Under the pieces are notes generated by a model. It was not told the DNA's origin. It worked only from the letters and a program-made list of their open reading frames with translations, and did not search any database. Position numbers and translations under genes: made by a program. Below, in pieces: positions 3,205 to 57,848 of a stretch of 64,000 nt of DNA. Source of the DNA: Escherichia phage vB-Eco-KMB43; sequence record OR525698.1, one strand, 5' to 3'. The number at the start of each line of letters is the position of its first letter. Position 1 is the first letter of the stretch.

Positions 3205-5028
3205 TTATGATTGCATCCAAATTTTGCGCTGATCTGCATCTTCACTATAGAGCAAATCGAATAGCTCTTTATAGTTTTCCGGTAACGTGATGATCTCCAT
3301 GACAGGATCGTTGATCACGCGATGATAGTCTGATTCTGTGAGCGATGCTAAACCTTTGATATATCGAATGTTGTAACCTTTGATATTATCTCGATCGTTC
3401 TCGAAATCTTCTAGGTCATAATACCATCGAACATCATCACCTTTCTTTGGTTCCGCAATGATAATAGGTGTTTTGATAAACCGGATTCGTCCATCTTCGA
3501 ACAATTCAGGCCAACGAGCAAAGAAAGAGATCAGACTAGGTTTAATAGACCCGATCCCGTCAGTATCAGCGTCGGTCATAATCGCAATATTTTTGTATTG
3601 CATAACTTCCAATGCATCAACACCAAATTGCAAGCCTGTGATCGCCATGATGTTAAAAATTTCGGCGTTCTTAACGATCTTTGCCTCCGGTTGTTCCCAC
3701 GTTGTAAGAGTTTTACCTCGCAACGGGAAACCTCCATGTAAATCTTGATCGCGTACAGAGATCAGATAGTTGATCGCGGAATCACCTTCCGTCAAAAACA
3801 GGGTAGTTTCTGCGTCAGTTCCAATAAGGTTAGCTTTAACGTGTTTTGCCACCTTAGCCCGTTTTGCTGCCTTTGCTGCCTTAGTCGCTGCCGCTTTATC
3901 TGCTGCCTCTTTGCGTGCCAGGACGACAGCAATAATAGGCATGATAATGTTTTCTTTCTTCGCAATGACTTTAGCCAGCTTTTTAAAATCAAGATCAATA
4001 TGACGCTTGATATCACCAGTCGGGTTAGTCAAGCGTTCTTTTGTCTGTGAATCAAAACGAAGGTTAGGCAATTCACGAACAATAAGAATACAGGTCAATC
4101 CAGATTTAACCGCAGCTTTAGTAACATCAACCTTATATTCTTTCTTGATTCGTTTTACAATCTCTTCACAAAGATCATCTGTCACGTAGTCTACGTGTGT
4201 TCCCCCGTTTTTGGTAAACAGACCATTAGCAAAGGATACTGATTTAAAACCTTCTCCCTCGACCGCAGGAACTAGGGCAAGTGAAAAGTTTTTATCTTCA
4301 ATGACAAACGGATCATCATTGTATAGTTTAGCATAATCCTTGAACTTACTAACAATACGTTTACCATTAAACTTAAACGTGATCTTAGGAAATATTACGC
4401 TCAATGATTGCAGACGATCATGAACAATATCTAAAACAGAGTTGTCCATCATATAACCTTCGAAGTGGTCGAAGTCTGGGCAAAATGTAACCTTTGTTCC
4501 CTTCAATTTTGATGGTTTCGATGACCATGTGATATTTTCAGCACCGTTTGTACATTGAACGGTCATTTCTGTTTCGCCGTCACAGGTCACACCAGTAAAC
4601 CAATCGCTAAAGAAATTTGACAACGACGACCCCACACCGTTCATCCCTTGCGTTAATCGATTGGTATCATCAAAGTTAGACCCTGCTTTTGTTCGTGTCC
4701 ATGCGGCTACAGGTTGCGGAATCTGCGTACCCTCTGGGGTAGTAACCATATGTTGAGGAATACCGCGACCGTTGTCTGTTACCGTAACAATATTGTTTTG
4801 GATATCGACGCTAATCACATTGGCAAATTCAAAATTAGTGCGGATCGCCTCGTCTACAGAGTTGTCGATGATCTCATCAATGATTTTAACCAGTCCAGGA
4901 ACGTATGAAATTTTTGTCCACTTACCGAACAGGAAACGTTGATGTTCTTCGTAAGTTGTTGATCCTATATACATTCCTGCACGCTTAAGGACATGTTCAC
5001 GATCAGATAAAATGCGGAACTCACTCAT
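3205..5028 (-). CDS. 39: DNA topoisomerase II large subunit (GyrB-like ATPase), continuous gp39 plus gp60-equivalent
   Basis: 607 aa; N-terminus LKRAGMYIGST and DNGRGIP GHKL motifs; length matches fused 39+60 of non-T4 T-even-like phages. Confidence 0.85.
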   Translation of the reverse strand: MSEFRILSDREHVLKRAGMYIGSTTYEEHQRFLFGKWTKISYVPGLVKIIDEIIDNSVDEAIRTNFEFANVISVDIQNNIVTVTDNGRGIPQHMVTTPEGTQIPQPVAAWTRTKAGSNFDDTNRLTQGMNGVGSSLSNFFSDWFTGVTCDGETEMTVQCTNGAENITWSSKPSKLKGTKVTFCPDFDHFEGYMMDNSVLDIVHDRLQSLSVIFPKITFKFNGKRIVSKFKDYAKLYNDDPFVIEDKNFSLALVPAVEGEGFKSVSFANGLFTKNGGTHVDYVTDDLCEEIVKRIKKEYKVDVTKAAVKSGLTCILIVRELPNLRFDSQTKERLTNPTGDIKRHIDLDFKKLAKVIAKKENIIMPIIAVVLARKEAADKAAATKAAKAAKRAKVAKHVKANLIGTDAETTLFLTEGDSAINYLISVRDQDLHGGFPLRGKTLTTWEQPEAKIVKNAEIFNIMAITGLQFGVDALEVMQYKNIAIMTDADTDGIGSIKPSLISFFARWPELFEDGRIRFIKTPIIIAEPKKGDDVRWYYDLEDFENDRDNIKGYNIRYIKGLASLTESDYHRVINDPVMEIITLPENYKELFDLLYSEDADQRKIWMQS

Positions 5029-10008: not shown

Positions 10009-10022
10009 ATTCACCTCATTAA

Positions 10023-11051
10023 TTAAAATTTACAATATTTCATAAACCGCATTTTAGCCATCAGACCTTGTACGGTGTTCTCTTTGATATATTCCATGAT
10101 CTGGTCGCGTGTAGCGCCCTCGTCCTGAATCATGGCGTTAACGTCTTTAGAATGCCACGGGCAACGGTCCCACAATACAATCTTTTCCCCTGCATTGATA
10201 AACTTTTCCAGTCGGTGCATTGTATCGGCAGACCGTGGTTCCGCATCAAGTACAAACACTCGCTGGTCTGGGAAAGGGATTTCATCTAATCCCAAAGTAC
10301 CGCCAGTAATTGCACACCCGTTATCAATAAACAATGAATCGATCGGACCTTCTAAGAAATACACTGGCCTACTCGGATCGGCGCGTTCAAGACCATAGAC
10401 CTTACTCGCTAACTCATGAGTTTTAATCGTCATATATTTGGTCTTTCCGTAATCCTTTCTCAATGCTCGCCCCTGAATGGATTCTATCTTGTTCTCGCGG
10501 TTAAAGATAGGAATCACTAAACGCGGTTCAGGTTGTGGATTCTTGAAAGTATCAGCCTTAATGTGATTTGCTACCTTTTGCCATTCTCTCGTGAAATACA
10601 GAAGGTCCCATTTATCGTGAGGGATGCAACGATCACTGACATACTTTATTATAGGATGATTAGCCGGAAGAGTATCTAATCTCTCGCAGAAAGGCAATGT
10701 TTGCACTTTCTTAATCTCCGGCTTTTCTACCTTTTTCAGTGGCTTGAACGTGGTGTTCTTGTGGTCTCCTTGTTCCTTCCGTCGTTCCATAAGCCATTCC
10801 CTGAATAGGTCCGGCTTATACTGTTTGAGAAATTCACCTAACGGCTGATTGTAGTTACAGTTGAAACAACCACAACGCAAACTATCCTTATAGGTATAGA
10901 TACGGAATCGCGCCATTGTGCTATTCTTTTTGGAATCTCCGCAGATCGGACAACTTGCTACTAACGTAAATGAGTTAGTATGTAACCGCTTGAAATTTCG
11001 TTCGCCGTATAATGCTTTTTCGGCTATTTCATAATCTGCGTAGTAAATCAT
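10023..11051 (-). CDS. 61: DNA primase
   Basis: 342 aa; N-terminal zinc ribbon CPICG...CFNC; same length as T4 gp61. Confidence 0.85.
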   Translation of the reverse strand: MIYYADYEIAEKALYGERNFKRLHTNSFTLVASCPICGDSKKNSTMARFRIYTYKDSLRCGCFNCNYNQPLGEFLKQYKPDLFREWLMERRKEQGDHKNTTFKPLKKVEKPEIKKVQTLPFCERLDTLPANHPIIKYVSDRCIPHDKWDLLYFTREWQKVANHIKADTFKNPQPEPRLVIPIFNRENKIESIQGRALRKDYGKTKYMTIKTHELASKVYGLERADPSRPVYFLEGPIDSLFIDNGCAITGGTLGLDEIPFPDQRVFVLDAEPRSADTMHRLEKFINAGEKIVLWDRCPWHSKDVNAMIQDEGATRDQIMEYIKENTVQGLMAKMRFMKYCKF

Positions 11052-11058
11052 AAGATCC

Positions 11059-11622
11059 TCACTGTATATTTTTACTTCTCTGCTTTCCTATCCAGATCCG
11101 TCTAACTGTTTCCGCATTAACATCATATATTTTTGCGGTCTTTGCCGCAGATCCGGTTCCTTTTAGAGTTTTGATTTCTTCAATCTGATCTTTGGTTAAT
11201 TTAGCCCAATGGTGTGCATCACCATAACACGAACTCAGACCGTGTGTCAATGCATGAATCTGATTTTCTGATTGTGTAACCCATTCAAGATTATATAGGT
11301 CATGGTTTCTTTTGTTTCCATCGATATGATTAACAAACGGCAAATTGTTTACGTTTGGTATAAACGCTTCTGCTTTTGCTCTGTGTATGTATATCGATAG
11401 AGATTTAACCCTAGACCCTGAACTAGTTTTATTACCGTAAGGATCTCTGATTCTTGCTACGGCGTATCCACCGCTTCTTCCGGCTACAGATTCTCTATAA
11501 ATCTTTCCTGTTTTCTTGTTTCTAATGCGTCCATATGAGCTAACCTCGTAGCCTGGCATTTCGACGCCCATATAAACAAGGTCTTTCCATTCTTCTGGAT
11601 GTTCATCACAATACCGTTTCAT
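11059..11622 (-). CDS. HNH homing endonuclease (NUMOD4-like plus HNH)
   Basis: GYEVSSYGRIRN motif and VNHIDGNKRNHDLYNLEWVTQSEN HNH motif; inserted just downstream of primase gene. Confidence 0.75.
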   Translation of the reverse strand: MKRYCDEHPEEWKDLVYMGVEMPGYEVSSYGRIRNKKTGKIYRESVAGRSGGYAVARIRDPYGNKTSSGSRVKSLSIYIHRAKAEAFIPNVNNLPFVNHIDGNKRNHDLYNLEWVTQSENQIHALTHGLSSCYGDAHHWAKLTKDQIEEIKTLKGTGSAAKTAKIYDVNAETVRRIWIGKQRSKNIQ

Positions 11623-11637
11623 GATGTTATTAACCTC

Positions 11638-16369: not shown

Positions 16370-19048
16370 TTAAATGTCAAACAGGTCCGTAAGCGATGCC
16401 ACCTTTTCATATTGCAGCTTTGCAGCCGTGGTAATGTTCTCCAGTGGTTTGACGAAAGTCTTATTAAACAACAAAGGCCAGTCTAACCACTTTAACACCT
16501 CTGATTCAATTTCTGGAGGAATACGAGTACCGGACAACCAACCAAAACAGATTTCTCCAAACGGATTTCGGTCTTTAAGCGGTACAATCATAACCTTCTC
16601 GCCCTCACGAATTGGATCTAGTCCGAATTTTCGAGCATTACGATTATAACACAATACACTCTTAACCGCATACGGACAACCCTTAATCGGATACCCGTTT
16701 GAATCGCTGTATTTCTGTAGGTTGTTTGCGGATGATACCGCAGCAACCTCAAGATAGTCAAGTTTTCTAAATTCTTGCTCAAAAATACCGTAGTATTCCT
16801 GCAATGACTCTTCACCTTCCTGCAACATACGGCGAATACATTCTTTCAGTGATTTCTGACATGCTTTAGGGGTGGAGCTACGTTGCGTTTCCAAGCCCAT
16901 GATTTTTAGCTTAGGTTCAGCAAAGCGCGTTCCTTCCATATCCCAAACATTAAGAGCATAACGCTTTTTACCAGTCCAGAATCCACCGATACCCGCAGAT
17001 TTCAATGGAGGACCAGCAATTGCCTCACGGTCCATAAACATCAAGTGCTCATAGTTGTTCATGTACTCGCATAACTCGCGATATCCCTTGTCGATAATAG
17101 GTTCCATTCGATGTTTACCGAAATTATCAAGGAAGTCAACAAGTTTTTCGGTATCGTCGAAACGGTCTTCCCCGCCAACCTTATCAATAACATTGTTAAC
17201 CAGCACATAAACGGAGTCAGTATCACAATAACGAACATATGCAAAATCAGTTGTTCCGCAAAGTTCGTTTAAGTATTCGTTAATCTTACGCTCAATCCAC
17301 TGAATTGCAAGCTGACCAAACAAGGTGATCGCACTAGCGTTACGGAGATCATAAAAACGGAATTTAGGATTCCCCAACGCACCATAAAGGGAGTTGATCA
17401 AAACTTTTCGAGAAAGCTGGTTTGTATTGCACAAGATCGACTCGTCTTTACATTCTTCCAGCAATTTCTCTAAGGCATCTTTGCTCAATTCAGAAAGCAT
17501 CGATTTAAACGCTTCATCGAAGTCGTGACGCACTTCAACGCTATAGCTAATGGTTCCCCCATAAACATGATTTTCATCGTGTAGAATCGCTTTACAGAGT
17601 TCAGCATTGCGATCACATGCCAACATCATGTTTTTGTACTGCTTACGCTGATCGAATACCTTTTTAATCTCAATCGGTACGATACCGTGAATATCTTTTC
17701 TATACATCCATCCGTTAGGCGAGCAAGAATACTCATCACTCGGACGTGGTGCAGTTTTATTGATATACTCGTGCATCGGTGCAGCATCAAAAGATCCAGC
17801 GATTGTTTCAGGAGAAATATTAACCTGTCGAATAATAGATGGGTACAGACTTGTTAAGTCAAAGCTCATCATCCAACGGTAAGCATTCGGCACAGGTTCT
17901 TTTACGAATGCTCCTGGATACGTCTGCTTAGGCTGTATCTTGTTCTCTGGTACTACTTTACCCTCAGCTTTCAGAGATCCGAAGATAATAGCATCCCATA
18001 CTTTCATCGGGTTATAAACATGGTTAAATTTAATCTTTGCATAGAAACATAGACTATACACCAGATCAATAAAACCACGCTTTTTATCAATCGCCAGCAC
18101 ACGGTCAACGTCGCCGATGTTATAATCTATGTAAAGTTGATGGTTGTCATCACGCAATTTCTTTAACGGACCATCATAATCAACCTTACCGATTCCTGTC
18201 TCGTATTCAGCAACATAATCTAATGCATATGTTGGTTGAGTAGTAAAGCTAAATTTCTTGTACAGGTCAATATAATCAAGGCTTTCGATCCCCATGATCG
18301 TAAATGCTTCACGCTCGTTGCCAAAATCATCCTGCGAGATTCGGGATTTAATCTTACCGCACGGGCTTAGACGGTTAGCGGTTCTACTTCCGAACTTATT
18401 ACTGATACGTTTAATGATATATGGAATATCGAATGTTTCTGTGTTCCAGCCAGTGAAACCAACGGGTCGGTTTTCCTCAAAGAATCGGATGTATTCTAAC
18501 AGCAATTCATCTTCTGTGTCATAGACGTTATAAACAACGCGCTCTACAATATCAGGGCGAAGAATAGACTTGCTTGCTTCCCAGATTTCACCGTTTTTTC
18601 CTTTCAAATCAAATACAAAGAAACGATCATGTACGGAATCATAATGCGTAATAGCATCGATAGGATATTTCGCTTCTTCTGGTTTAGGAAATTCCGGTGC
18701 AGTGACCTCAATATCAACCCAGGCTACACGGATTTTATTTCGGTCATATCGAATCTCGCCTTTATATGTATCGGACAGATAGGAGATGATAAAATCATCC
18801 ATCCCTAGTGCCTCCTGCCCCATTTCTCCCATCTTTTTACGCCATTTGTTGGCCTCGTTCATAGATGGGAATTTTTTAGCAATGCAAGGCTTGCCATAGA
18901 TATCTTTATAATTCGTAACCATACCGGGCGCGGCATGATGAAATAAAGTTGGCGTATATTCAACGTAACGCTCTTGTTCTTGTCCAGCATCATCAATATA
19001 ACGCTCGTAGATCTTATCACCCACTCGCTCACATGACAGAAAATACAT
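16370..19048 (-). CDS. 43: DNA polymerase, family B
   Basis: YCDTDS motif C, exonuclease motifs; N-terminus aligns with T4 gp43 from internal ATG at 19048 (GAAGGAG RBS); track start 19078 is GTG. Confidence 0.9.
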   Translation of the reverse strand: MYFLSCERVGDKIYERYIDDAGQEQERYVEYTPTLFHHAAPGMVTNYKDIYGKPCIAKKFPSMNEANKWRKKMGEMGQEALGMDDFIISYLSDTYKGEIRYDRNKIRVAWVDIEVTAPEFPKPEEAKYPIDAITHYDSVHDRFFVFDLKGKNGEIWEASKSILRPDIVERVVYNVYDTEDELLLEYIRFFEENRPVGFTGWNTETFDIPYIIKRISNKFGSRTANRLSPCGKIKSRISQDDFGNEREAFTIMGIESLDYIDLYKKFSFTTQPTYALDYVAEYETGIGKVDYDGPLKKLRDDNHQLYIDYNIGDVDRVLAIDKKRGFIDLVYSLCFYAKIKFNHVYNPMKVWDAIIFGSLKAEGKVVPENKIQPKQTYPGAFVKEPVPNAYRWMMSFDLTSLYPSIIRQVNISPETIAGSFDAAPMHEYINKTAPRPSDEYSCSPNGWMYRKDIHGIVPIEIKKVFDQRKQYKNMMLACDRNAELCKAILHDENHVYGGTISYSVEVRHDFDEAFKSMLSELSKDALEKLLEECKDESILCNTNQLSRKVLINSLYGALGNPKFRFYDLRNASAITLFGQLAIQWIERKINEYLNELCGTTDFAYVRYCDTDSVYVLVNNVIDKVGGEDRFDDTEKLVDFLDNFGKHRMEPIIDKGYRELCEYMNNYEHLMFMDREAIAGPPLKSAGIGGFWTGKKRYALNVWDMEGTRFAEPKLKIMGLETQRSSTPKACQKSLKECIRRMLQEGEESLQEYYGIFEQEFRKLDYLEVAAVSSANNLQKYSDSNGYPIKGCPYAVKSVLCYNRNARKFGLDPIREGEKVMIVPLKDRNPFGEICFGWLSGTRIPPEIESEVLKWLDWPLLFNKTFVKPLENITTAAKLQYEKVASLTDLFDI

Positions 19049-31633: not shown

Positions 31634-32134
31634 TTAACCGATTTTATCAAGTTCGTTTAATGCTTTCTCTGCTTCCTGTATAGCTTGCACCCTTTCCGGC
31701 ATTTTGTAAAGAAAATCTTTCAACTCTTCAAAACTGGAGATATGACGCAAGGCGTTAGCACCGATAGCCGCATGTGATTTGCATTCAAAGCGGATTTTAT
31801 AATTATCCATCGCCAATTTGAGAAGGTCTATTAGATCATATTCATGACCAGGTAATAAAACTTCTTTGAAGCACGCTCGGTCACCATCGGAAAACCATAT
31901 ATTATCACCAATATCGATAGAACTAATATAATCCCCTTCGTGATTATAGATTGAACGCACATTACCCCAACGGTCTACCGTAGCGACAGTAAATGGTTTA
32001 TCTAGATATGTAAACATACCATCAATATTAGGTCTTTGTTCGTAACTCCAACAATCACGCAAAATACGCTTTTCGTATTCGCCAACCAACGCATAGGTCT
32101 TACCTTCTTCCCATTTCATAATATTATCTCTCAT
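31634..32134 (-). CDS. paralog family A member (166 aa)
   Basis: MKWEEGKTY ... KPFTV ... CFKEV domain. Confidence 0.45.
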   Translation of the reverse strand: MRDNIMKWEEGKTYALVGEYEKRILRDCWSYEQRPNIDGMFTYLDKPFTVATVDRWGNVRSIYNHEGDYISSIDIGDNIWFSDGDRACFKEVLLPGHEYDLIDLLKLAMDNYKIRFECKSHAAIGANALRHISSFEELKDFLYKMPERVQAIQEAEKALNELDKIG

Positions 32135-32621
32135 TTTTGATACGTGATTCTAATTGGATCATACGGTCGCGCGTTTGCTTGTATTCACGGATAGCACCGA
32201 TCCGGCTAGGCATACCATCTAGGACGCTCTTAATCCCTTCTAGGGTAGTGATTTTAGCAATGCTATTATGTAACCCCATCTTATCGATCAACTGAATGTC
32301 GTAGGCTTCCATAAGCAGACCCAGACGTTCTAAGGTTAGATCTGGTTCTTTAACTTCTTTAAAGAATCGACGTTCACCAGCCCAAAACCACGCACCGTGC
32401 GCACCAATTGGAGTGTCTCGAACAGAAATACATTTACCATCACTTAACGAGATTTCAAGAACATGACCCTCATTACTCATAACCTCGACTGTAAAAGGAC
32501 GTCCATCAAGAAACTCAGCAACTTGACGGTTGATTGACAGTTCAGATTTGGTAAATTCTGCTTTCTTCTCATCACCATCAAGAGTGTACATCTTACCCAA
32601 TTCCCATTTCATAGCAATCAC
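32124..32621 (-). CDS. paralog family A member (165 aa)
   Basis: MKWELGKMY ... RPFTV ... RRFFKEV domain. Confidence 0.45.
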   Translation of the reverse strand: MIAMKWELGKMYTLDGDEKKAEFTKSELSINRQVAEFLDGRPFTVEVMSNEGHVLEISLSDGKCISVRDTPIGAHGAWFWAGERRFFKEVKEPDLTLERLGLLMEAYDIQLIDKMGLHNSIAKITTLEGIKSVLDGMPSRIGAIREYKQTRDRMIQLESRIKNER

Positions 32622-32622
32622 C

Positions 32623-33126
32623 TCAAATAATTTTTACTGGAATACTATTAACAATCTTGTATTGTACTTGATTGTCAGACCCCCGCCACGGCTTCTTCGT
32701 TGGCATATCTTTAATATAACGACCATCGATGAACATGTCAACTGATTCTACAATTTTTCTTTGCTCATCATTCAATTGGTCAAGGGTATAACCAGACCAT
32801 AGCCAAATATCTTTATTTGGCATCCATGATTTTACTTCATCGATGATCCGCTGTACACCCTTTAAATTGCGTTTATACAGTGGATCTCCACCTAAGAATG
32901 TTAGCCCCTGAATAAAATCAGGTCTAAGCAGATCCAGAATCAATCCCATTGTATCATCGGTGAATGGTTCCCCGTTCTTAGGATTGAGTAGACTAGCATT
33001 AAAGCAACCATCACATGCGTGTGAACATCCGGTAACGTAAAGGGAGACTCTCACTCCCTCACCGTTAACCATATCACAATCTTTAATATCGGCATAGCGT
33101 AATTTGCCGTATGTATCAGAACTCAT
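32623..33126 (-). CDS. nrdG: anaerobic ribonucleotide reductase activating protein (radical SAM)
   Basis: CSHACDGC cluster and TFLGGDP motif; ATG at 33126 (track start is TTG). Confidence 0.85.
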   Translation of the reverse strand: MSSDTYGKLRYADIKDCDMVNGEGVRVSLYVTGCSHACDGCFNASLLNPKNGEPFTDDTMGLILDLLRPDFIQGLTFLGGDPLYKRNLKGVQRIIDEVKSWMPNKDIWLWSGYTLDQLNDEQRKIVESVDMFIDGRYIKDMPTKKPWRGSDNQVQYKIVNSIPVKII

Positions 33127-33268
33127 ATTCAATTACCCCGAACTCGTTTACAATCTGCGCTTTATAGTAACCACCGCGAGATGCTAATAGATAAGCTGGG
33201 CTTAGGTATTCGTATTCGCGGATTTCTACTTGTGCGTTTTCAGTTTCCCAAATCAGTAAAGTCCACAT
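33116..33268 (-). CDS. small hypothetical protein (50 aa)
   Basis: ORF track runs through the upstream promoter; internal ATG at 33268 follows a GGAGAATCAAAT RBS. Confidence 0.25.
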   Translation of the reverse strand: MWTLLIWETENAQVEIREYEYLSPAYLLASRGGYYKAQIVNEFGVIEYEF

Positions 33269-33310
33269 ATTTGATTCTCCTGTAAAGTTGTATCTCGTCT
33301 TGATGAATAT

Positions 33311-33339
33311 AGTATAGGGGATCGCGAGATCCCCGTCAA
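33311..33339 (-). promoter_or_regulatory. promoter-hairpin cassette (TTGACG, hairpin GGGGATCTCGCGATCCCC, TATACT)
   Basis: upstream of small ORF and nrdG. Confidence 0.5.
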
Positions 33340-33357
33340 GCATTTATTTTAAAAATC

Positions 33358-33903
33358 TCAAAGTATTCTTTCTAGCCATTCGCGACCAGTCATATGAGTA
33401 CCCGCAATCATAAAATTATGGTCTGGCGAGGACCGAAACATATCTAAAATAAACTTCCGACATTCCTCATAGTCATCACGTTTAAGATAGACCACGTTCT
33501 CGCCAGTGCCAATAACTCCTTTACGATAGCCATGTTCTTTACGCGTAGACCATTGCACAGTATCCTTTTTAACTCGAATCACGATTGGTTCCCAATATCC
33601 AGCACATCCAGCATGACCACACGAACAAGTAAGGAAGTATTGACCCTTTGCTTTGTTCTCATCCCATCCAACATTAATCGGATAACATTCATGAAACAAT
33701 GCTAAAACATCATGTGTCTCGTCAATATCTTTATCGTCAATTCGTGCAGTAAACACCCAAACAGGGATCTTATTACCTATTGGTTCATAATCATCGCCCC
33801 ACTCGTCATAAATAGTTTCTAAGGTCATATCAATATTGATTGATTTTGCCGCGTCAATATGTCGTTGTGCTTTACGTTTACGGTTTAATGATTTCATAGT
33901 CAC
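33358..33903 (-). CDS. hypothetical protein (181 aa)
   Basis: ORF between nrdD and nrdG; Cys/His-rich stretch CSCGHAGCAGYW. Confidence 0.4.
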   Translation of the reverse strand: MTMKSLNRKRKAQRHIDAAKSINIDMTLETIYDEWGDDYEPIGNKIPVWVFTARIDDKDIDETHDVLALFHECYPINVGWDENKAKGQYFLTCSCGHAGCAGYWEPIVIRVKKDTVQWSTRKEHGYRKGVIGTGENVVYLKRDDYEECRKFILDMFRSSPDHNFMIAGTHMTGREWLERIL

Positions 33904-38189: not shown

Positions 38190-38220
38190 AATATAATCCT
38201 CTCGTTGTTTAGATGGGAGT

Positions 38221-38249
38221 ATCTTACTACTCCCGTTTCATCATGTCAA
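38221..38249 (-). promoter_or_regulatory. promoter-hairpin cassette (TTGACA; TAAGAT in loop of GGGAGTA/TACTCCC stem)
   Basis: same architecture as 36987-37014. Confidence 0.45.
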
Positions 38250-38830
38250 GCGTTAAATGACTTTTGGATCTCTTTCAGTTCAGCTACTTTATCGGCGCTA
38301 TATTTTGCTTGATGTTCCATGCGCTTAAGCTCACCTTTGATATAGGTTTCTAGCTTAGGTTTATTCTCAATCAGAAAATCTTTCAAGTCATCGGCATTTT
38401 TAAAGTATAGCTGATTGTCAAAGCTAAAATCTTCCAGCGTCAATGATACCAAAGAAGACTTCGCAAACAAGTTAATCAGACCTTCCAGAGATTCTTCTTT
38501 CTTAACTGGTTTCATTTCTTCAAACTGCTTTTTAGTGATGCGTTTAAAGTATTTGCGCTCGTTTGCAGCAATCAGAACAGATGCACCTTCATACCCATGA
38601 GTTTCTACCAGATACACACGCCCCATCGCATCAACAGTGAGAACTTTAAAGCCGTTACAAAGCACGTCATACAAGAACTTATTATGTTGCGGACATCGTT
38701 TGATAAATTCTGCGGCTGTTTCTGCACTACGGAAAGTGTAATAACGACCTCGTTCAAAAACAGCATCATTTGAAGACTTAGCCGGATACAATTTATACGT
38801 TTTCTGTACCATAATATAATCCTCTATCAT
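38246..38830 (-). CDS. paralog family A member (194 aa)
   Basis: NGFKVLTVDAMG and ERKYFKRI motifs. Confidence 0.45.
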   Translation of the reverse strand: MIEDYIMVQKTYKLYPAKSSNDAVFERGRYYTFRSAETAAEFIKRCPQHNKFLYDVLCNGFKVLTVDAMGRVYLVETHGYEGASVLIAANERKYFKRITKKQFEEMKPVKKEESLEGLINLFAKSSLVSLTLEDFSFDNQLYFKNADDLKDFLIENKPKLETYIKGELKRMEHQAKYSADKVAELKEIQKSFNA

Positions 38831-39943: not shown

Positions 39944-40699
39944 TTATACCTCATTCAGTTCTATATCAAGTTCATTTTCAATAATATAGGCATTAACTGC
40001 CCGTGCCGCATCATCTTCTGTGTCAAATCTTCCTATATACACACCGCGAACTTTAGCACCGTAATTACCTTGTTTTGGTACTTTGTAAACGTATCTATGA
40101 CGGGAACTTGCTGCTTTTTGGAGCTTCTTGCCATATTCAGACTTTGCATATTCTATATCATCAATCTCGTTTATACAAGACCTATCACCAAAATGTTTCA
40201 ACGCGGCAAGATTATATGCATACGCCGCGCCGATCTCGGAGGGAAAATATCCTAAATGTATCGACTTCCCATCCAACATTATTGCACCAGTCCAATAACC
40301 TTTATTCTTATTAAACGACACACCTTTATACTTCGAATATGTTTTGCATTTGGTCTTGCTCATATTCATATTATTTTGTTTGCGTGTCGTCTCTCTAAGG
40401 TTTTCAATGCGGCTATTATAACGATCTCGGTCTTTATGATCTATATACTTAGGACAATGACCATGAAACATATGATAGATAACACGGTGCATACGTTCGT
40501 ATCGCTCGCCAGTCCATACAATACGATACCCATCGGGGGTATCACTTCCAGCTAATCCGTTTATAACACCTTTTCGGTGCGGGTGAATCTTCCACCTAAG
40601 AAAACCATCATCATAATAAAACCGTGAATGATATAAATCATATAAACGTTTATCTTCTGGAGTCTTGTGTATAACCTCATATTTTAACATTGGTGACAT
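39944..40699 (-). CDS. HNH homing endonuclease with AP2-like DNA-binding domains
   Basis: HRVIYHMFHG...IDHKDRDRYNSRIENLR HNH motif; YKGVSF..GYW...AAYAYNLAALKHFG and YRGVY...AARAVNAY AP2-like modules. Confidence 0.75.
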   Translation of the reverse strand: MSPMLKYEVIHKTPEDKRLYDLYHSRFYYDDGFLRWKIHPHRKGVINGLAGSDTPDGYRIVWTGERYERMHRVIYHMFHGHCPKYIDHKDRDRYNSRIENLRETTRKQNNMNMSKTKCKTYSKYKGVSFNKNKGYWTGAIMLDGKSIHLGYFPSEIGAAYAYNLAALKHFGDRSCINEIDDIEYAKSEYGKKLQKAASSRHRYVYKVPKQGNYGAKVRGVYIGRFDTEDDAARAVNAYIIENELDIELNEV

Positions 40700-41492
40700 A
40701 AACTTCCTTAGTATCGGATTTTTTACCCCCGCTACGATCTAAACAATATGTTTTATCCAGTTCAACAACAGAAACATCATTACGTTCGATAAAATCGAGC
40801 AAATGGTTGTTAACTTTCCCTTTGTGGTGAGTAACATTGCTTAATCCAAACTTAGCACCGCTAGACATTAATGATTCTATCCACATGTAGAATTTAATCT
40901 CTTCTTCTTCACTCCAGAACTTATTATATTCTGCCGACGTGATCCAATATGGCGGATCAAGGAAAACGAAATCACCTGGCAAGATCTCGATCTCGTCATA
41001 GCGACCAGACGTAAAACTGATTCGACCGTCTTTGTTTTCTTCCTTAAAATTCAGGACACGCTCTACCGCGTTTTCGTTAAAAGTCCGGCGACCAAAATTA
41101 GCATTAAATTCGCCCTTCCGGTTATGGCGGTTAATGTTGCTAAAACTATGCTGAATCAACACAAACAGCGATAGCGGATCTGGATTCTCATTATACTTCT
41201 TACGGAATGCCATGTAAGCGTCTTTATCTTCGCGAGACAAACCATTTTCGGCAATAATCCGCTTGATCGTAGAAACCGGATCAGGACACTCGTCAATGGC
41301 CTTGTAAGCGTCAATTAAGCGGTGATCATAGTCATTAGCCAGCACATCCCCTTCGACGTACAGAGACACGCTCAAGCCGCCACAAAAGGCATCAACAAAG
41401 CGGTTATAGTGCTTAGGGAAATACTTACTAACACCGGGCAATAACTTTTCCTTATTGCCAGTATAGGGAATTAAACCTAATGCTTTCTTCAT
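40677..41492 (-). CDS. dam: DNA adenine methyltransferase
   Basis: 271 aa; FxGxG-like DAFCGG and catalytic DPPY motifs. Confidence 0.8.
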   Translation of the reverse strand: MKKALGLIPYTGNKEKLLPGVSKYFPKHYNRFVDAFCGGLSVSLYVEGDVLANDYDHRLIDAYKAIDECPDPVSTIKRIIAENGLSREDKDAYMAFRKKYNENPDPLSLFVLIQHSFSNINRHNRKGEFNANFGRRTFNENAVERVLNFKEENKDGRISFTSGRYDEIEILPGDFVFLDPPYWITSAEYNKFWSEEEEIKFYMWIESLMSSGAKFGLSNVTHHKGKVNNHLLDFIERNDVSVVELDKTYCLDRSGGKKSDTKEVYVTNVKI

Positions 41493-41923
41493 TATCCCTT
41501 CCTCAAATAAGTTCGCTCAATCTCTACCAGTTCGAAAAATTCATTCCAATCACACGGAAAATTGCAGTTTCCAAAATGGTCTTCGTTATAGAGTTCTTTA
41601 CCGGATGGCAGCTTAATATCTGTTACAGTATACCAACCGCAACAATCGCAATCACCCTCAGCAACAGAAACCTTCGTAGGAATTTGCATCATTGCTAGAT
41701 AGGTCGGTACGTCAGACTGTTCAAAGATCATGTAACCTTCATGGTCAAACGAGACAAAATTGTCATCACCCAAAAAAGGAATGTAATGGTCATAATCGGT
41801 TACAGGTTGACCGTGCAATTCCCATTCTACAATTTTAACATTACCACTAAACTTTATACCCATAATTTCAACAAGAAAATGAGTATCGTCAATGTAAATC
41901 TTACTAGGAGTTGGATAAACCAT
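41492..41923 (-). CDS. hypothetical protein (143 aa)
   Basis: ORF; Cys-rich segment GDCDCCGW. Confidence 0.4.
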   Translation of the reverse strand: MVYPTPSKIYIDDTHFLVEIMGIKFSGNVKIVEWELHGQPVTDYDHYIPFLGDDNFVSFDHEGYMIFEQSDVPTYLAMMQIPTKVSVAEGDCDCCGWYTVTDIKLPSGKELYNEDHFGNCNFPCDWNEFFELVEIERTYLRKG

Positions 41924-43120: not shown

Positions 43121-43495
43121 TTAAAAATCTTCTTCCGGTTTATATCGACCGTCATCGACTGGTTTTGGACTGAATCCTTTATGCGTGCGCGGCTTCGCTT
43201 CCGGTTTACCAGCAATCATCAAACCAAAACATTTCAGCCCCTTATAACACATAACAATATCAACCACGGTCCACGTTATAGGCCATAAGATTGCAGCAAT
43301 ACAAAATGCTCCTGTATCGACCTCTTTGGTGTCCTTGTCGAATCTGGCGTACAAGCAGAATACTAGATACGAGATCATTGCACCAGTAGTCCAGATATAA
43401 AGCACATTAACAATATCTTGTGTTGTCACATTATCCTCCTTACATGTCTTGCAGTGCATAAAAGCATTTTTCTTCGTAGTCATAGAAAATGTCAA
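43121..43495 (-). CDS. membrane protein (124 aa)
   Basis: two or three hydrophobic helices; start uncertain because of overlap with upstream ORF. Confidence 0.35.
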   Translation of the reverse strand: MTFSMTTKKNAFMHCKTCKEDNVTTQDIVNVLYIWTTGAMISYLVFCLYARFDKDTKEVDTGAFCIAAILWPITWTVVDIVMCYKGLKCFGLMIAGKPEAKPRTHKGFSPKPVDDGRYKPEEDF

Positions 43496-45089: not shown

Positions 45090-45547
45090 TTTGTGATCTC
45101 CTTATACTCAACACACCATAAGCGGGTAGCCCATGATAAACGCTCATAACGCTGGCAGAAATCGGACCATAGATATTGTGTACCGTCTTGCATGGTTGAA
45201 ATATGCGTTTTCTCACCTACTTTCACGAAAGAAGTATTCGATTTTGTGATCTCGACCGGAGTATATCCGAAAGCTGGTTCCAAGTCAACATCTGAACTAA
45301 ATGCTAATTTAACAGAATTTGTTTTTCTGACCGCTGTCCGGTTTCCTTCTGGGTATAGCACAGCAGGTTTAGCGCCTAAGCGGATAAACTCAGTGTTTTT
45401 AATAAACAGAATATCATGATAACCGTCATATTCCGACACTTCCATAGTAACAGGAAAATCGACAGGTTCTAAACCTGGTAGATCTCGCATATCATGAAAG
45501 GTCGCCATCAACTTTTTCATTCTATATTCCTCACTCTTCTGTTTCAT
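45086..45547 (-). CDS. hypothetical protein (153 aa)
   Basis: ORF in accessory array. Confidence 0.4.
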   Translation of the reverse strand: MKQKSEEYRMKKLMATFHDMRDLPGLEPVDFPVTMEVSEYDGYHDILFIKNTEFIRLGAKPAVLYPEGNRTAVRKTNSVKLAFSSDVDLEPAFGYTPVEITKSNTSFVKVGEKTHISTMQDGTQYLWSDFCQRYERLSWATRLWCVEYKEITK

Positions 45548-45767
45548 TTCTTTTATATGGTACTATAACAGGATTAATACAGCAAGCACCAATTACGTTA
45601 TGAGCACCACAATTTAAGCATTTATAATCATGGAACTTATTAAGGAATCGCCCGAACTCATAACCGACCAACGCCGAGTGTACTTGAGTCTCGATCTCAT
45701 CCATATCAGCCAATGTTTTAACCTTCATAATATAATCCTCAAATACTGGTTTTGCGAAGATGGTCAT
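45531..45767 (-). CDS. hypothetical Cys-rich protein (78 aa)
   Basis: CLNCGAHNVIGACC cluster. Confidence 0.3.
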   Translation of the reverse strand: MTIFAKPVFEDYIMKVKTLADMDEIETQVHSALVGYEFGRFLNKFHDYKCLNCGAHNVIGACCINPVIVPYKRNETEE

Positions 45768-46029
45768 TACATGCTTTTAATGCATCAGTCGCGGTGTCAT
45801 AGCGAGTATTATCATAGCACCAATAACCATCTGTCAACTGATAAATTAATCCATCCTTTTTAGCGTCGATGAAAGACAATTCTTTGAAAGTTTCTACTTT
45901 CTTTGCTGATACTCCACGGTCACGGCGTTTATAGAGTTTAGCTAAAACGCGTTCAGCTTGTTCCTCTTTATCGCCAGACAGATCCCAGATGACGTTTCTG
46001 ATATGCTTGATTAATTGTTCAGTGGTCAT
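45739..46029 (-). CDS. hypothetical protein (96 aa)
   Basis: ORF preceded by promoter-hairpin cassette. Confidence 0.35.
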   Translation of the reverse strand: MTTEQLIKHIRNVIWDLSGDKEEQAERVLAKLYKRRDRGVSAKKVETFKELSFIDAKKDGLIYQLTDGYWCYDNTRYDTATDALKACNDHLRKTSI

Positions 46030-46059
46030 ATTTGATTCTCCTTAGTTGGTATGGTTATC

Positions 46060-46088
46060 ATTATACGGGGATTTCTCCCCGTGTCAAC
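46060..46088 (-). promoter_or_regulatory. promoter-hairpin cassette (TTGACA, hairpin CGGGGAGAAATCCCCG, TATAAT)
   Basis: same hairpin as at 25905-25920. Confidence 0.55.
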
Positions 46089-46090
46089 AA

Positions 46091-46312
46091 TTAAATGATC
46101 TCTGCTTCACCGTTAAGGAAGAAAGACCATGTTTTGTTAGGATAGCGAAGCGCCCATGATTCAGCAGTTTTAACACCAGCTTCAAACAATTGACGGCTGG
46201 TTACTTTAGCCATACCATCTTCGATGGCAACGTTTTCAATAATCATCGGGTACTTAGCGCCACGCATGAAACCGAAGCCAGCGGAAGATTTGATAATTTT
46301 AACAGTTGCCAT
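46091..46312 (-). CDS. hypothetical protein (73 aa), distantly family B-like
   Basis: AGFGFMRGAKYPMIIEN...EAGVK pattern; GGAGAATCAAAA RBS. Confidence 0.35.
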   Translation of the reverse strand: MATVKIIKSSAGFGFMRGAKYPMIIENVAIEDGMAKVTSRQLFEAGVKTAESWALRYPNKTWSFFLNGEAEII

Positions 46313-53426: not shown

Positions 53427-53469
53427 AATTAAACCCTCAGTTGATTAAGAGATTGCATCATATCATCAT

Positions 53470-53500
53470 AAAACGAAAAAGCCAACCCTTTTCGGATTGG
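53470..53500 (-). terminator. rho-independent terminator after grcA
   Basis: AGCCAATCC-GAAAA-GGGTTGGCT hairpin then TTTTTCGTTTT. Confidence 0.6.
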
Positions 53501-53512
53501 CTTGATGAAAAA

Positions 53513-54556: not shown

Positions 54557-54618
54557 GGTAAAGTCTCCAGTGAACGGGGAGAGATCCTTAGATTGTCTCC
54601 CCGTTGATGGTTAATATT

Positions 54619-55194
54619 TTATTTTGGATCTGGGAAATTCAATAGAGCATATTCTCCATAAAATTTCCTAGCTGCATTATCATAAGCGATTGCAGCTTCG
54701 ATTTCTGTGTCATATTGTCCAAGAACATGTCTTTGTAGGTTGACCATTATACTAGCTCTCCATTTCTTACGCAAATCCTTCCTGTTACACTTACTAACAC
54801 CCTTATACACACTAGAAAACTTTTTAGACTTCTTCTTTCTATTATGTTGATTTTGCGCGTCGGTTGCCTCCCTAAGATTTGGAGGATTGTTATTAGCAGG
54901 ATTACCGTCAATATGATCAATTAATCTAACTTGCGTCCCATGTTCTAGAAACCAAACAACCCTATGCACGAATAAATGAACTCTAGGAAGACCGTCATCT
55001 CTACTATGCCAAAATCGAAGATGACCATCTTTATTTGTTCTGACTTTAACTAAATCGCCGTGTTTATATCTACTCCCTAATGGTCGTCCTTTGATAGCTT
55101 TACTATCGACTCTATAATATAAGATACCCTCTATATGAGCATATCTAAGTTTTATCTCGTTTTGTAGGGATTCATCCCAATATTTAAAAGCCAT
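54619..55194 (-). CDS. HNH homing endonuclease with AP2-like domain
   Basis: HRVVWFLEHG...IDHIDGNPANNNPPNLREAT HNH motif; YKGVS...GQYDTEIEAAIAYDNAARKFYG AP2-like module. Confidence 0.75.
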   Translation of the reverse strand: MAFKYWDESLQNEIKLRYAHIEGILYYRVDSKAIKGRPLGSRYKHGDLVKVRTNKDGHLRFWHSRDDGLPRVHLFVHRVVWFLEHGTQVRLIDHIDGNPANNNPPNLREATDAQNQHNRKKKSKKFSSVYKGVSKCNRKDLRKKWRASIMVNLQRHVLGQYDTEIEAAIAYDNAARKFYGEYALLNFPDPK

Positions 55195-55239
55195 TTTATA
55201 ATCCTCACAAAGCCAGCGATTAAGCTGGCTTGATTTTAG

Positions 55240-55629
55240 TTATACCGGGTCTGGATATACCTTTTTATCGAGTTCCATATGCGGTCCGTCTTTAAAAGTA
55301 ACCCAATCAACACCGCAGATAACAGGAACACCCAATTCTCGACCAGCTTGTTTAAATGCATCCGCGATCATGCGGTAGTATTTCATGTTCCATGTATCCT
55401 TATCTTTCGGATACGCTACAACGTCAACCGCGAAACCGTGAAGATGACGAGATTTCATAGTCTTAGATTTACCTTCCGCAACATATTTCTTTTGCGTTTC
55501 TAGACTACGTACACCTTCCGTAATACCAAAATCGACCGGAGTCAGTTCTAACGCACGATGAACGACTTTTACCAGGTCAGGATGCACACCAACAAGCCGA
55601 TCTTTGCTTCTTTGAGATAATTTAAACAT
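55240..55629 (-). CDS. endolysin, L-alanyl-D-glutamate peptidase (M15/VanY-like)
   Basis: SRHLHGFAVDV...DGPHMEL zinc-binding H..D..H pattern; resembles phage T5-type endolysin. Confidence 0.7.
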   Translation of the reverse strand: MFKLSQRSKDRLVGVHPDLVKVVHRALELTPVDFGITEGVRSLETQKKYVAEGKSKTMKSRHLHGFAVDVVAYPKDKDTWNMKYYRMIADAFKQAGRELGVPVICGVDWVTFKDGPHMELDKKVYPDPV

Positions 55630-56995: not shown

Positions 56996-57248
56996 AGAAT
57001 GAAATTTTCACAGACACAATTTTACCATAAGTGAAGAATGAATATACATTATCGAGATATTCAACGTCACCTACAATCACATCAAACTGCGGATCAGCAA
57101 CCACCGCAACATATTCTACCAGTTCATCAAGAGAATGCAACTTAATTTCATCAATTCGGCTGTATTTGGTCGCATCTTTAATTTTAAAACCAAGTTCTTT
57201 CAGCTTGTCAATCAGAATTTCACGCGGAGTTTCAAACAGTTTGCTCAT
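56928..57248 (-). CDS. hypothetical protein (106 aa)
   Basis: ORF; 3' overlap with next ORF. Confidence 0.35.
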   Translation of the reverse strand: MSKLFETPREILIDKLKELGFKIKDATKYSRIDEIKLHSLDELVEYVAVVADPQFDVIVGDVEYLDNVYSFFTYGKIVSVKISFCENVEVLASEPEKPTDNGPSAA

Positions 57249-57269
57249 AATATAATCCTCACATTAAAT

Positions 57270-57470
57270 CTAAAATTTGTTAACGACGAATTGCATAATT
57301 AGACTAATCACAAACATTGCAAACCAAGTATAAATGCAACAGATAAAAGCTACATACAATTCAATCTGGTCAGAGAATACACCGGGTAAAAGCATTAGCA
57401 AAATAACAACAGTAAAGACGCTAGCGATACCCGCAACAAAACCAATATCATTTTTACTAATCGTCATCAA
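57270..57470 (-). CDS. small membrane protein (66 aa)
   Basis: two TM helices. Confidence 0.3.
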   Translation of the reverse strand: MMTISKNDIGFVAGIASVFTVVILLMLLPGVFSDQIELYVAFICCIYTWFAMFVISLIMQFVVNKF

Positions 57471-57664
57471 GTCACCGTTTTGTAAAGAAACACAATAAAA
57501 TCCCAGACAAAAAAGACAGTGAAAATAATCATCGTCAAGACAATAAACACTGTCAGATTTTCATCGTTAGTTAATTCATGACCGTCCATCCATATAATCA
57601 CCAGATAAAACATCGAAATCAAGGAGGCGAATACCAAATTATAAAACTCTTCCTTTAATGACAT
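57467..57664 (-). CDS. small membrane protein (65 aa)
   Basis: two TM helices. Confidence 0.3.
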   Translation of the reverse strand: MSLKEEFYNLVFASLISMFYLVIIWMDGHELTNDENLTVFIVLTMIIFTVFFVWDFIVFLYKTVT

Positions 57665-57665
57665 A

Positions 57666-57848
57666 CTACACCTCGTCGCGGCTTAAGTCAACAGCAATTG
57701 CATACAGCATAATTAATATGCTAGCAGATCCGAGAATCAATGCACCCTCACATTTTGAAACTCGCTCATCAAAATGTAACATTATCCATCCGAGGATGTT
57801 AAAGGCGCAGACCGCGCCTATGTTCGCTAACCAATTAATCTTTTTCAT
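57666..57848 (-). CDS. small membrane protein (60 aa)
   Basis: two TM helices. Confidence 0.3.
   Translation of the reverse strand: MKKINWLANIGAVCAFNILGWIMLHFDERVSKCEGALILGSASILIMLYAIAVDLSRDEV

Follow-up and report, generated by a model that had tools for sequence, protein, structure and literature searches.

Three putative HNH homing endonuclease genes beside primase, dam and endolysin in an RB49-like coliphage, each linked to a one-sided divergent tract in its neighbour

Results

Three HNH genes in the left end of an RB49-like genome

The DNA analysed here, called the window below, is a stretch of 64,000 nucleotides of Escherichia phage vB-Eco-KMB43 (OR525698.1), which its sequence places as the left end (first 64 kb) of an RB49-like, T4-type coliphage genome (Krischvirus, Straboviridae). 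Three open reading frames, HNH1 (11059–11622, 187 aa), HNH2 (39944–40699, 251 aa) and HNH3 (54619–55194, 191 aa), lie on the minus strand, as do the genes of all the regions studied, and each has an HNH_3 domain scoring above the Pfam cut-off of 24.8 bits. The original prediction, made from the letters of the sequence, had given these coordinates exactly and had named the neighbouring genes as we find them: the primase gp61 (gene 61, 10023–11051) adjoins HNH1, nrdC (39661–39942/39954) and dam (40677–41492) flank HNH2, and an M15 endolysin (55240–55629) adjoins HNH3. In a phmmer scan of all ORFs these three were the only ones of the HNH_3 type in the window, and a scan of the window ORFs for a GIY-YIG-like motif found none.

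When the three HNH regions were compared by megablast with 50,697 phage records, the matches were confined to about 58 Krischvirus genomes at 93–99% identity. The coordinates of the window and of RB49 (AY343333) agree to the base as far as position 11051, with the primase at 10023–11051 in both. When 50 kb of the RB49 and Cognac genomes were compared with it by BLAST, the window showed three additional segments relative to RB49, namely 11053–11627, 39957–40685 and 54635–55278. The T4-type late-promoter motif TATAAATA was not found upstream of HNH1, HNH2 or HNH3 and occurs just twice on the minus strand over the full length of the window, so that expression of the three genes would depend on read-through. 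Mosaic blocks with no link to a homing endonuclease gene (HEG) are common in this genome, for example at 38200–38800, 41600–41800 and 43200–43400.

Domain architecture of the three proteins

HNH1 consists of a NUMOD4 module (PF07463; aa 10–47, nt 11482–11595; 26 bits, cut-off 23.4, E 1.1e-5), which bears out the NUMOD4-like module originally proposed for it, of an HNH_3 domain (aa 78–121, nt 11260–11391; 30.0 bits, E 3.9e-7) and of a possible C-terminal helix-turn-helix (aa ~141–177, nt 11092–11202), a weak resolvase-type profile match that stays below the cut-off (HTH_7, E 0.0038, 17.8 bits against 23.8). The protein aligns with residues 2–107 of I-HmuI, an HNH homing endonuclease of solved structure (1U3E), at E 6.7e-5. 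Its motif reads N98-H99...N111...N120, in which H99, N111 and N120, the equivalents of H75, N87 and N96 of I-HmuI, are kept, and in which the asparagine of N98-H99 stands in place of the metal ligand D74 of the I-HmuI pair D74-H75. The architecture of HNH1 appears to be I-HmuI-like. PHROGs assigns it to phrog_59 ("HNH endonuclease"), and relatives of HNH1 from the NUMOD4/HNH_3 family (PHROG 59/959) are present in about 1,900 phage records. It is only remotely related to HNH2 and HNH3.

The HNH2 protein starts with an N-terminal beta domain, followed by HNH_3 (aa 70–111, nt 40367–40492; 51.8 bits, E 6.3e-14), a first AP2 module (aa 122–168, nt 40196–40336; E 1.2e-8, 35.6 bits, over the Pfam cut-off of 33.3) and a degenerate AP2-like module (aa ~204–241, nt 39977–40090) that was delimited on a structure model. 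Two AP2-like modules had been predicted for this ORF; the one preceding the C-terminal part is an AP2 domain by the Pfam standard, and the other is recognisable at the level of the fold in a degenerate form. By sequence this second module is weak (AP2 E 0.057 for the isolated C-terminus), and the C-terminus of HNH2 aligns with the second AP2 domain of a distant two-AP2 relative, P0008. An AlphaFold2 model of HNH2 (mean pLDDT 79) contains two beta-beta-beta-alpha units, at residues 127–173 and 204–241, the latter at pLDDT 70–80, and the top fold match of the model is the double-AP2 protein WRINKLED1 (WRI1), with 151 aligned columns. From the model we hold with moderate confidence that a second, degenerate AP2 fold is present. 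Such a module is rare among the relatives of HNH2, just one distant relative, of 256 aa, having two.

HNH3 has a simpler layout, with HNH_3 (aa 75–116, nt 54847–54972; 40.2 bits, E 2.6e-10) and one AP2 domain (aa 129–180, nt 54655–54810). The AP2 score of 25.2 bits (E 2.1e-5) is below the Pfam cut-off of 33.3; direct comparison with solved plant AP2/ERF domains gave matches to WRI1 (1.4e-9), TEM1 (4.8e-5) and ERF1 (8e-4), in agreement with the AP2-like module predicted for this ORF. HNH3 shares 39% identity with HNH2 over HNH+AP2 and 46% with RB49 ORF040c, and both HNH2 and HNH3 belong to phrog_99 ("HNH endonuclease") in PHROGs. Their motifs, D87-H88...N100...N110 in HNH2 and D93-H94...N106...N115 in HNH3, keep the equivalents of I-HmuI H75, N87 and N96 (H88, N100, N110 and H94, N106, N115, respectively) and have an aspartate before the histidine. 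Loss of the HNH catalytic residues was looked for, and the residues are intact in all three proteins.

Relatives of HNH2 are few. A search of 5.8 billion proteins returned only 10, one of them full-length at 99% identity, and a scan of IMG/VR found none; because of this scarcity the donor lineage of HNH2 appears to be unsampled.

Insertion sites

At the primase site, the insert (11053–11627, 575–577 bp) lies between the ORF017c stop codon and the ATG of gene 61 and is missing in RB49, GEC-3S and most Krischvirus genomes. RB49 has nine bases from the ORF017c stop to the primase ATG; the window has 577 bp there. The insert supplies gene 61 with a new ribosome-binding site, GAGGATCTT, and the old one, GAGGTTAAT, now precedes HNH1. 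FL20 has another HNH gene at this site, which shares 56% identity with HNH1 and goes with a primase 5' end of its own that is even more diverged; the primase site thus has competing occupants.

At the second site, the start of HNH2 overlaps the final 23 nt of dam, and its stop codon falls 1 nt ahead of the annotated ATG of nrdC (39942). The insert itself (39957–40685, 729 bp) is confined to HNH2 carriers, and its left joint falls where the dam stop codon and the nrdC ribosome-binding site used to be.

The insert at the endolysin site (54635–55278) measures 644 bp vs 23 bp in RB49 and comprises the HNH3 cassette, a hairpin and a replacement endolysin 3' end. The 16 nt immediately to its left (54619–54634, minus strand), TTATTTTGGATCTGGG, do not differ from the endolysin 3' end of RB49, which is HEG-less here; they encode PDPK and a stop codon and now form the C-terminal end of HNH3. 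This sequence is a remnant of the resident endolysin tail and marks the left recombination joint. Since the PDPK-stop is now found in HNH3 and the endolysin of the window ends in an insert-supplied VYPDPV-stop, the cassette recombined within the last codons of the endolysin gene and captured its tail. The space from the endolysin stop codon to the ribosome-binding site of HNH3 holds the hairpin (55210–55231; 8-bp stem, AAGCCAGC-loop-GCTGGCTT). The records of phages G5211 and TB34 list it as a terminator; we rejected it as a terminator upstream of HNH3, as its T-run is on the plus strand and the genes are on the minus strand, and its role is uncertain. Three-piece BLAST matches had pointed to an alternative insert at the endolysin site in MIZ4, G37-3 and 011D4, but the extra gene of these phages sits elsewhere, between nrdC.11 and vs.6, about 1.2 kb from the endolysin site, and the idea of competing occupants at that site was therefore dropped.

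The junctions at all three sites are precise and preserve the translation signals of the downstream genes. The original description of the HNH genes as free-standing insertions between conserved genes is borne out by the empty sites in relatives (see below) and needs correction in one respect: insertions 2 and 3 are not strictly intergenic, since each replaces the 3' end of the gene upstream (dam and endolysin, respectively).

Distribution of the genes among Krischvirus genomes

HNH1 is carried by Cognac, ECD7, where it is annotated as "HNH_1: HNH homing endonuclease", Whisky, TB34 and SAP (roughly six records) and is missing in about 50. Carriers of HNH2 make up 7/58 records, among them phiS, PHB13, pEJ01, GEC-3S, Sf20 and ELT3, and HNH3 is found in 13 of about 58, including JSE, TB34, SAP, G5211, G2248, Whisky, pEJ01 and phiS. 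The pEJ01 copy of HNH3 is broken, being annotated as two ORFs with 92% coverage. The comparison with endonuclease-free relatives, proposed along with the original prediction, showed the empty site to be the majority state: most of the remaining records, RB49 included, have clean empty sites, and these are identical and precise in about 45–51 records. All three genes are already present in GenBank records at 99–100% identity, mostly under the annotation of homing endonucleases.

HNH1 and HNH2 were not found together in any record of the collection (about 58 Krischvirus genomes, the window itself aside), in which the combinations seen are HNH1 only, HNH2 only, HNH1 with HNH3, HNH2 with HNH3, and none. 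Counting the window, each pairwise combination of presence and absence exists, and the distribution of the genes therefore does not fit on one tree. The window is itself empty at other positions: beyond its three occupied sites, at least four HEG sites of the genus are unoccupied in it, and RB49 ORF040c, located in RB49 between gene 47 and a-gt.4, is missing, leaving a clean empty site at ~26950.

One-sided divergent tracts in the neighbouring genes

Sliding-window identity of the window against 5–9 relatives per site revealed next to each HNH gene a short tract, on one side only, in which carriers are 96–100% identical to the window and non-carriers far lower, differing by 20–30%. Gene and tract together are 99–100% identical among carriers (99.2–100% measured) against 93–98% for the backbone; the 2–3 kb flanks are likewise at 93–98%, and carriers are no more similar there than non-carriers. 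As gene and tract are 99–100% identical and the backbone is 2–7% different, the HEG with its tract is younger than the backbone, i.e., recently shared and not anciently inherited.

The primase tract (10905–11030, minus strand) covers the 5' end of gene 61, codons ~10–46, in the zinc-ribbon region, and is 80% identical in non-carriers. It contains 18 differing codons (13 of them synonymous) vs about 10 in the other 296 codons. The tract is at least 99% identical in ECD7, TB34, SAP and Cognac. The linkage is imperfect: the HEG-less phages JK32 (99.2%) and AV108 (97.6%) have the carrier-type allele, and the tract of the carrier Whisky (90.5%) is partly of the non-carrier allele. Whisky is a recombinant, its primase being of carrier type to about +110 and of non-carrier type at +113 to +137. 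The primase tract is predicted to be the target/immunity region or a co-conversion tract, and because of the three exceptions a part of it, at least beyond +110, may be hitch-hiking background rather than a determinant of immunity.

Linkage is complete at the second site. The dam tract (40686–40964, minus strand, ~280 bp) comprises the final ~93 dam codons, from the DPPY motif to the end; by blastn it is at least 98.5% identical in 7/7 carrier records and 70.7–74.8% identical in 51/51 non-carrier records, and at 40965 the identity jumps back to about 97%. The differences are mostly in third positions and amount to 30% in DNA and about 22% in protein vs all other Krischvirus. A blastn search of the phage collection did not find this tract outside the seven carriers; in tblastn the carriers are followed by HEG-less Krischvirus at 77–82% amino-acid identity and then by matches of at most 47%. 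A donor of HNH2 and the dam tract was found by none of blastn, tblastn and IMG/VR searches. Because of the 30% divergence from all non-carriers and of the sharp boundary, the dam tract must, on sequence grounds, derive from a lineage outside the sampled genus.

The endolysin tract (55240–55325, minus strand) is the last 85 bp of the gene, residues ~104–129, which read ICGVDWVTFKDGPHMELDKKVYPDPV in the window vs EWGGDWTSFKDGPHLQLPHSKYPDPK in RB49. It occurs at 98.8% identity or more in 13/13 HNH3-carrying records and nowhere else in the collection. Divergence on one side is also seen beside HEGs that are missing from the window, in gene 56 by the HEG of TB34 and in vs.6 by the HEG of JSE/MIZ4/011D4. 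The linked tracts are likely target or immunity regions. The view that the HNH genes mark recombination hotspots, put forward at the outset as a likelihood, is borne out by these data: foreign tracts on one side of the genes, gene and tract more alike than the backbone, a breakpoint in Whisky and a second allele in FL20.

Discussion

HNH-AP2 genes of T4-related phages have reportedly been described by Magnani et al. in 2004, Nolan et al. in 2006 and Petrov et al. in 2010. The kinds of genes found in the window are thus already known in RB49-type phages, HNH-AP2 having been in the literature since 2004–2010. This class of homing endonuclease genes is noted for RB49 and RB43 (PMC1524935, citing Magnani et al. 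2004), and HNH-AP2 gene counts of 1 in RB49, 2 in JSE, 3 in RB43 and 6 in RB16 have been given (PMC2993671). HNH2 and HNH3 share the defining HNH+AP2 architecture of the class. The JSE gene at the endolysin position and HNH3 are 100% identical, and HNH2 stands apart from the class by its extra degenerate second AP2. The window is without the RB49 copy, ORF040c, and has copies at two other sites instead. The AP2 modules of HNH2 and HNH3 match plant AP2/ERF domains (WRI1 7WQ5, TEM1 7ET4, ERF1 1GCC) in sequence at E values of 1e-9 to 1e-3, and the HNH2 model matches the double-AP2 WRI1 in fold; unlike in the plant proteins, AP2 is fused to a nuclease in the phage, with no sign of a transcriptional role.

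For HNH1, the closest comparison is with I-HmuI, the intron-encoded HNH nicking enzyme of Bacillus phage SPO1. The N-terminal beta domain is common to the two, as is the HNH motif; they are of similar length (174 aa in I-HmuI, 187 aa in HNH1), and HNH1 has a weak match at the place of the C-terminal helix-turn-helix of I-HmuI. In contrast to I-HmuI, HNH1 is free-standing, reads N-H where I-HmuI has the D-H of its first metal ligand, and its predicted target is a primase gene instead of a DNA polymerase gene.

The free-standing endonucleases of T4 lie between conserved genes, cut the neighbouring gene and co-convert its flanks (PMC2988022). HNH1–3 share with SegF (soc/56), SegG (32/59) and MobE (nrdA/nrdB) the position between conserved genes, presence or absence in sister phages and adjacent co-conversion, as well as the cut in the neighbouring gene, which for HNH1–3 is only predicted. 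The Seg enzymes are of the GIY-YIG type, while HNH1–3 are HNH proteins like MobE, whose DNA-binding region is nevertheless another one. Also, T4 cleavage sites may be hundreds to thousands of bp away (PMC2988022), whereas the tracts of HNH1–3, of 85–280 bp, abut the gene. By analogy, the intronless-homing scheme of the T4 seg and mob genes fits HNH1–3.

Under this scheme the process would begin with co-infection by a sister phage lacking the gene. The DNA-binding modules of the enzyme (NUMOD4 and a putative helix-turn-helix in HNH1, two AP2 in HNH2, one AP2 in HNH3) would recognise an extended asymmetric site, and its HNH centre, of the beta-beta-alpha-metal type, would nick or cut a conserved neighbouring gene of the rival, the predicted targets being the 5' end of primase gene 61 for HNH1, the 3' part of dam for HNH2 and the 3' end of the endolysin gene for HNH3. 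The break would then be resected and repaired by the phage recombination machinery with the carrier genome as the template, and the endonuclease gene would thereby be transferred along with the adjoining part of its neighbour, a part that differs in sequence and for that reason would presumably not be cut. Lateral spread of each gene with its adjoining tract is the preferred reading because break-initiated gene conversion predicts data of just this kind. We put at roughly 0.85 the probability that these are three intact selfish HNH genes whose distribution and tracts are explained by intronless homing with one-sided co-conversion. The endonuclease activity, the exact cleavage sites and the mobility of HNH1–3 are in each case what we infer from the sequences.

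The polymorphism could also have arisen in the opposite direction, by repeated deletion of genes that were all present in the common ancestor of Krischvirus, so that it would reflect loss instead of homing. The carrier-type primase allele of the HEG-less JK32 and AV108 can be read as a trace of HNH1 loss, and decay does happen, as the broken HNH3 of pEJ01 illustrates. Many independent deletions are nevertheless an unlikely source of identical and precise empty sites in about 45–51 records, a dam tract 30% diverged from that of non-carriers needs import from outside, every combination of presence and absence exists, and the 99–100% identity of HEG and tract among carriers is set against a backbone that is 2–7% different; we consider ancestral loss very improbable. 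Hardly better placed is the notion of inactive or domesticated relics, by which the proteins would serve as DNA-binding regulators through AP2 or the helix-turn-helix, or would be neutral passengers of ordinary recombination. AP2 is a transcription-factor domain in plants and apicomplexans, no dedicated promoter was seen, and mosaic blocks unconnected with HEGs are common in the window's genome, all of which would suit relics. On the other hand, the HNH motif residues are intact in HNH1, HNH2 and HNH3, the ORFs are full-length and 99–100% conserved among carriers, and foreign tracts that are strictly adjacent and one-sided point to break-initiated repair, not to random mosaic exchange, which makes this explanation improbable as well.

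Somewhat less remote, though still unlikely, is the possibility that the nucleases act mainly in phage–phage competition or in evasion of host defence, by marker exclusion or amplification of neighbouring loci, their spread being a by-product. Homing endonucleases of T4 do exclude T2 markers (PMC2988022), and SegB is reported in a 2026 paper to promote amplification of anti-defence loci (PMC13096335). The window offers no specific support for such a role; the neighbours, primase, dam and endolysin, are housekeeping genes, and because the mechanism would be the same as that of homing, competition would be an added benefit rather than an alternative.

Within the homing explanation, a further step may be considered, in which the linked tracts are immunity alleles and, at the same time, a means of exchanging portions of essential genes for versions from an unsampled sister lineage. 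We regard this step as tentative, its chances being a little short of even; that the tracts confer immunity rather than hitch-hike is something we infer from their sequences and linkage. If it is true, the exchange would affect the zinc-ribbon of the primase, the catalytic C-terminal third of Dam (from DPPY onward) and the C-terminus of the endolysin. It would also provide precise predictions for three targets of AP2-HNH and NUMOD4-HNH phage enzymes, and a natural system for AP2 DNA recognition outside eukaryotes. To our knowledge, no enzyme of the HNH1–3 types has a target with a mapped site in T4-type phages.

The general understanding of homing endonucleases is unchanged by these results. 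They are of use for annotating and comparing the genomes of therapeutic coliphages of the RB49 type, and the narrowing of the likely cleavage/immunity regions to 85–280 bp would shorten the biochemistry on AP2-HNH enzymes. For the genus, HNH1–3 together with the further sites, at least four, that are empty in the window account for much of the variation in gene content, and HNH1–3 also account for the local mosaic blocks in primase, dam and endolysin.

Other sites of homing endonuclease genes, and decay in relatives

Further sites at which Krischvirus relatives carry homing endonuclease genes (HEGs) are empty in the window. Between the gene 47 ATG and a-gt.4 (window ~26950) there is a clean empty site for ORF040c, the HNH-AP2 gene of RB49, which amounts to 565 bp in that phage; the HNH gene next to the M15 endolysin in our phage (HNH3, 54619-55194) is 46% identical to ORF040c. 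The gene 56/gene 61 intergenic region (10009-10022) is likewise empty, an HNH-AP2 gene being located between these two genes in TB34 and SAP, where the identity of gene 56 falls to 68-86%. At the empty nrdC.11/vs.6 intergenic site (53427-53512), JSE, MIZ4 and 011D4 possess a HEG of 531-594 bp, and the vs.6 genes of these carriers show an identity of only 74-82%.

A strong hairpin (ACGGGGAGAGATCC...TTGTCTCCCCGT) located at 54560-54610, between vs.8 and HNH3, is kept in all the relatives. Since in the HEG-less phages it directly follows the endolysin stop codon, this hairpin is probably the original endolysin terminator, which in the window is now found 3' of HNH3.

Signs of decay were encountered in the relatives. 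In phiS (PP449093) one extra C is present in the 3' end of dam (position ~3900-3925 of the phiS locus compared, aligned to window 40725), due to which the gene is annotated as ~45 bp shorter, while the HNH3 copy of pEJ01 (OP114734 157559-158130) is represented by two annotated ORFs and aligns in two pieces with 92% coverage.

Variation at other loci

The ~909-bp cassette of RB49, Cognac and GEC-3S, which comprises gene 38 with its own terminators, is missing at window 46053-46091. Gene 38 (RB49 45367-46143) encodes a long-tail-fibre adhesin/assembly protein, and a tblastn search yielded no copy of RB49 gp38 in the whole 64-kb window, the site holding just a 38-bp stretch adjoining a hairpin (GGGGATTTCTCCCCG). 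In the vB-Eco-KMB43 genome, the gene for receptor binding may be located elsewhere or may have been replaced.

The stretch 31833-33860, which aligns only patchily to RB49 and Cognac (RB49 ORF050c-ORF055c region, around nrdG), is a hypervariable segment bearing no relation to the three HNH genes of the window. In the short mosaic blocks at 38200-38800, 41600-41800, 43200-43400 and 57200-57700, some relatives match the window at 57-84% identity and others at 96-100%; the spread of these blocks across the relatives is independent of HEG presence, so allele shuffling among the small ORFs of the hyperplastic region is general.

The DNA polymerase gene 43 is unbroken in the window and in RB49. In Cognac it harbours a 1.1-kb insertion at the position matching window ~17846-17855, so that the polymerase is annotated as two CDS with an 825-bp ORF in between; this insertion is probably another mobile element of Krischvirus.
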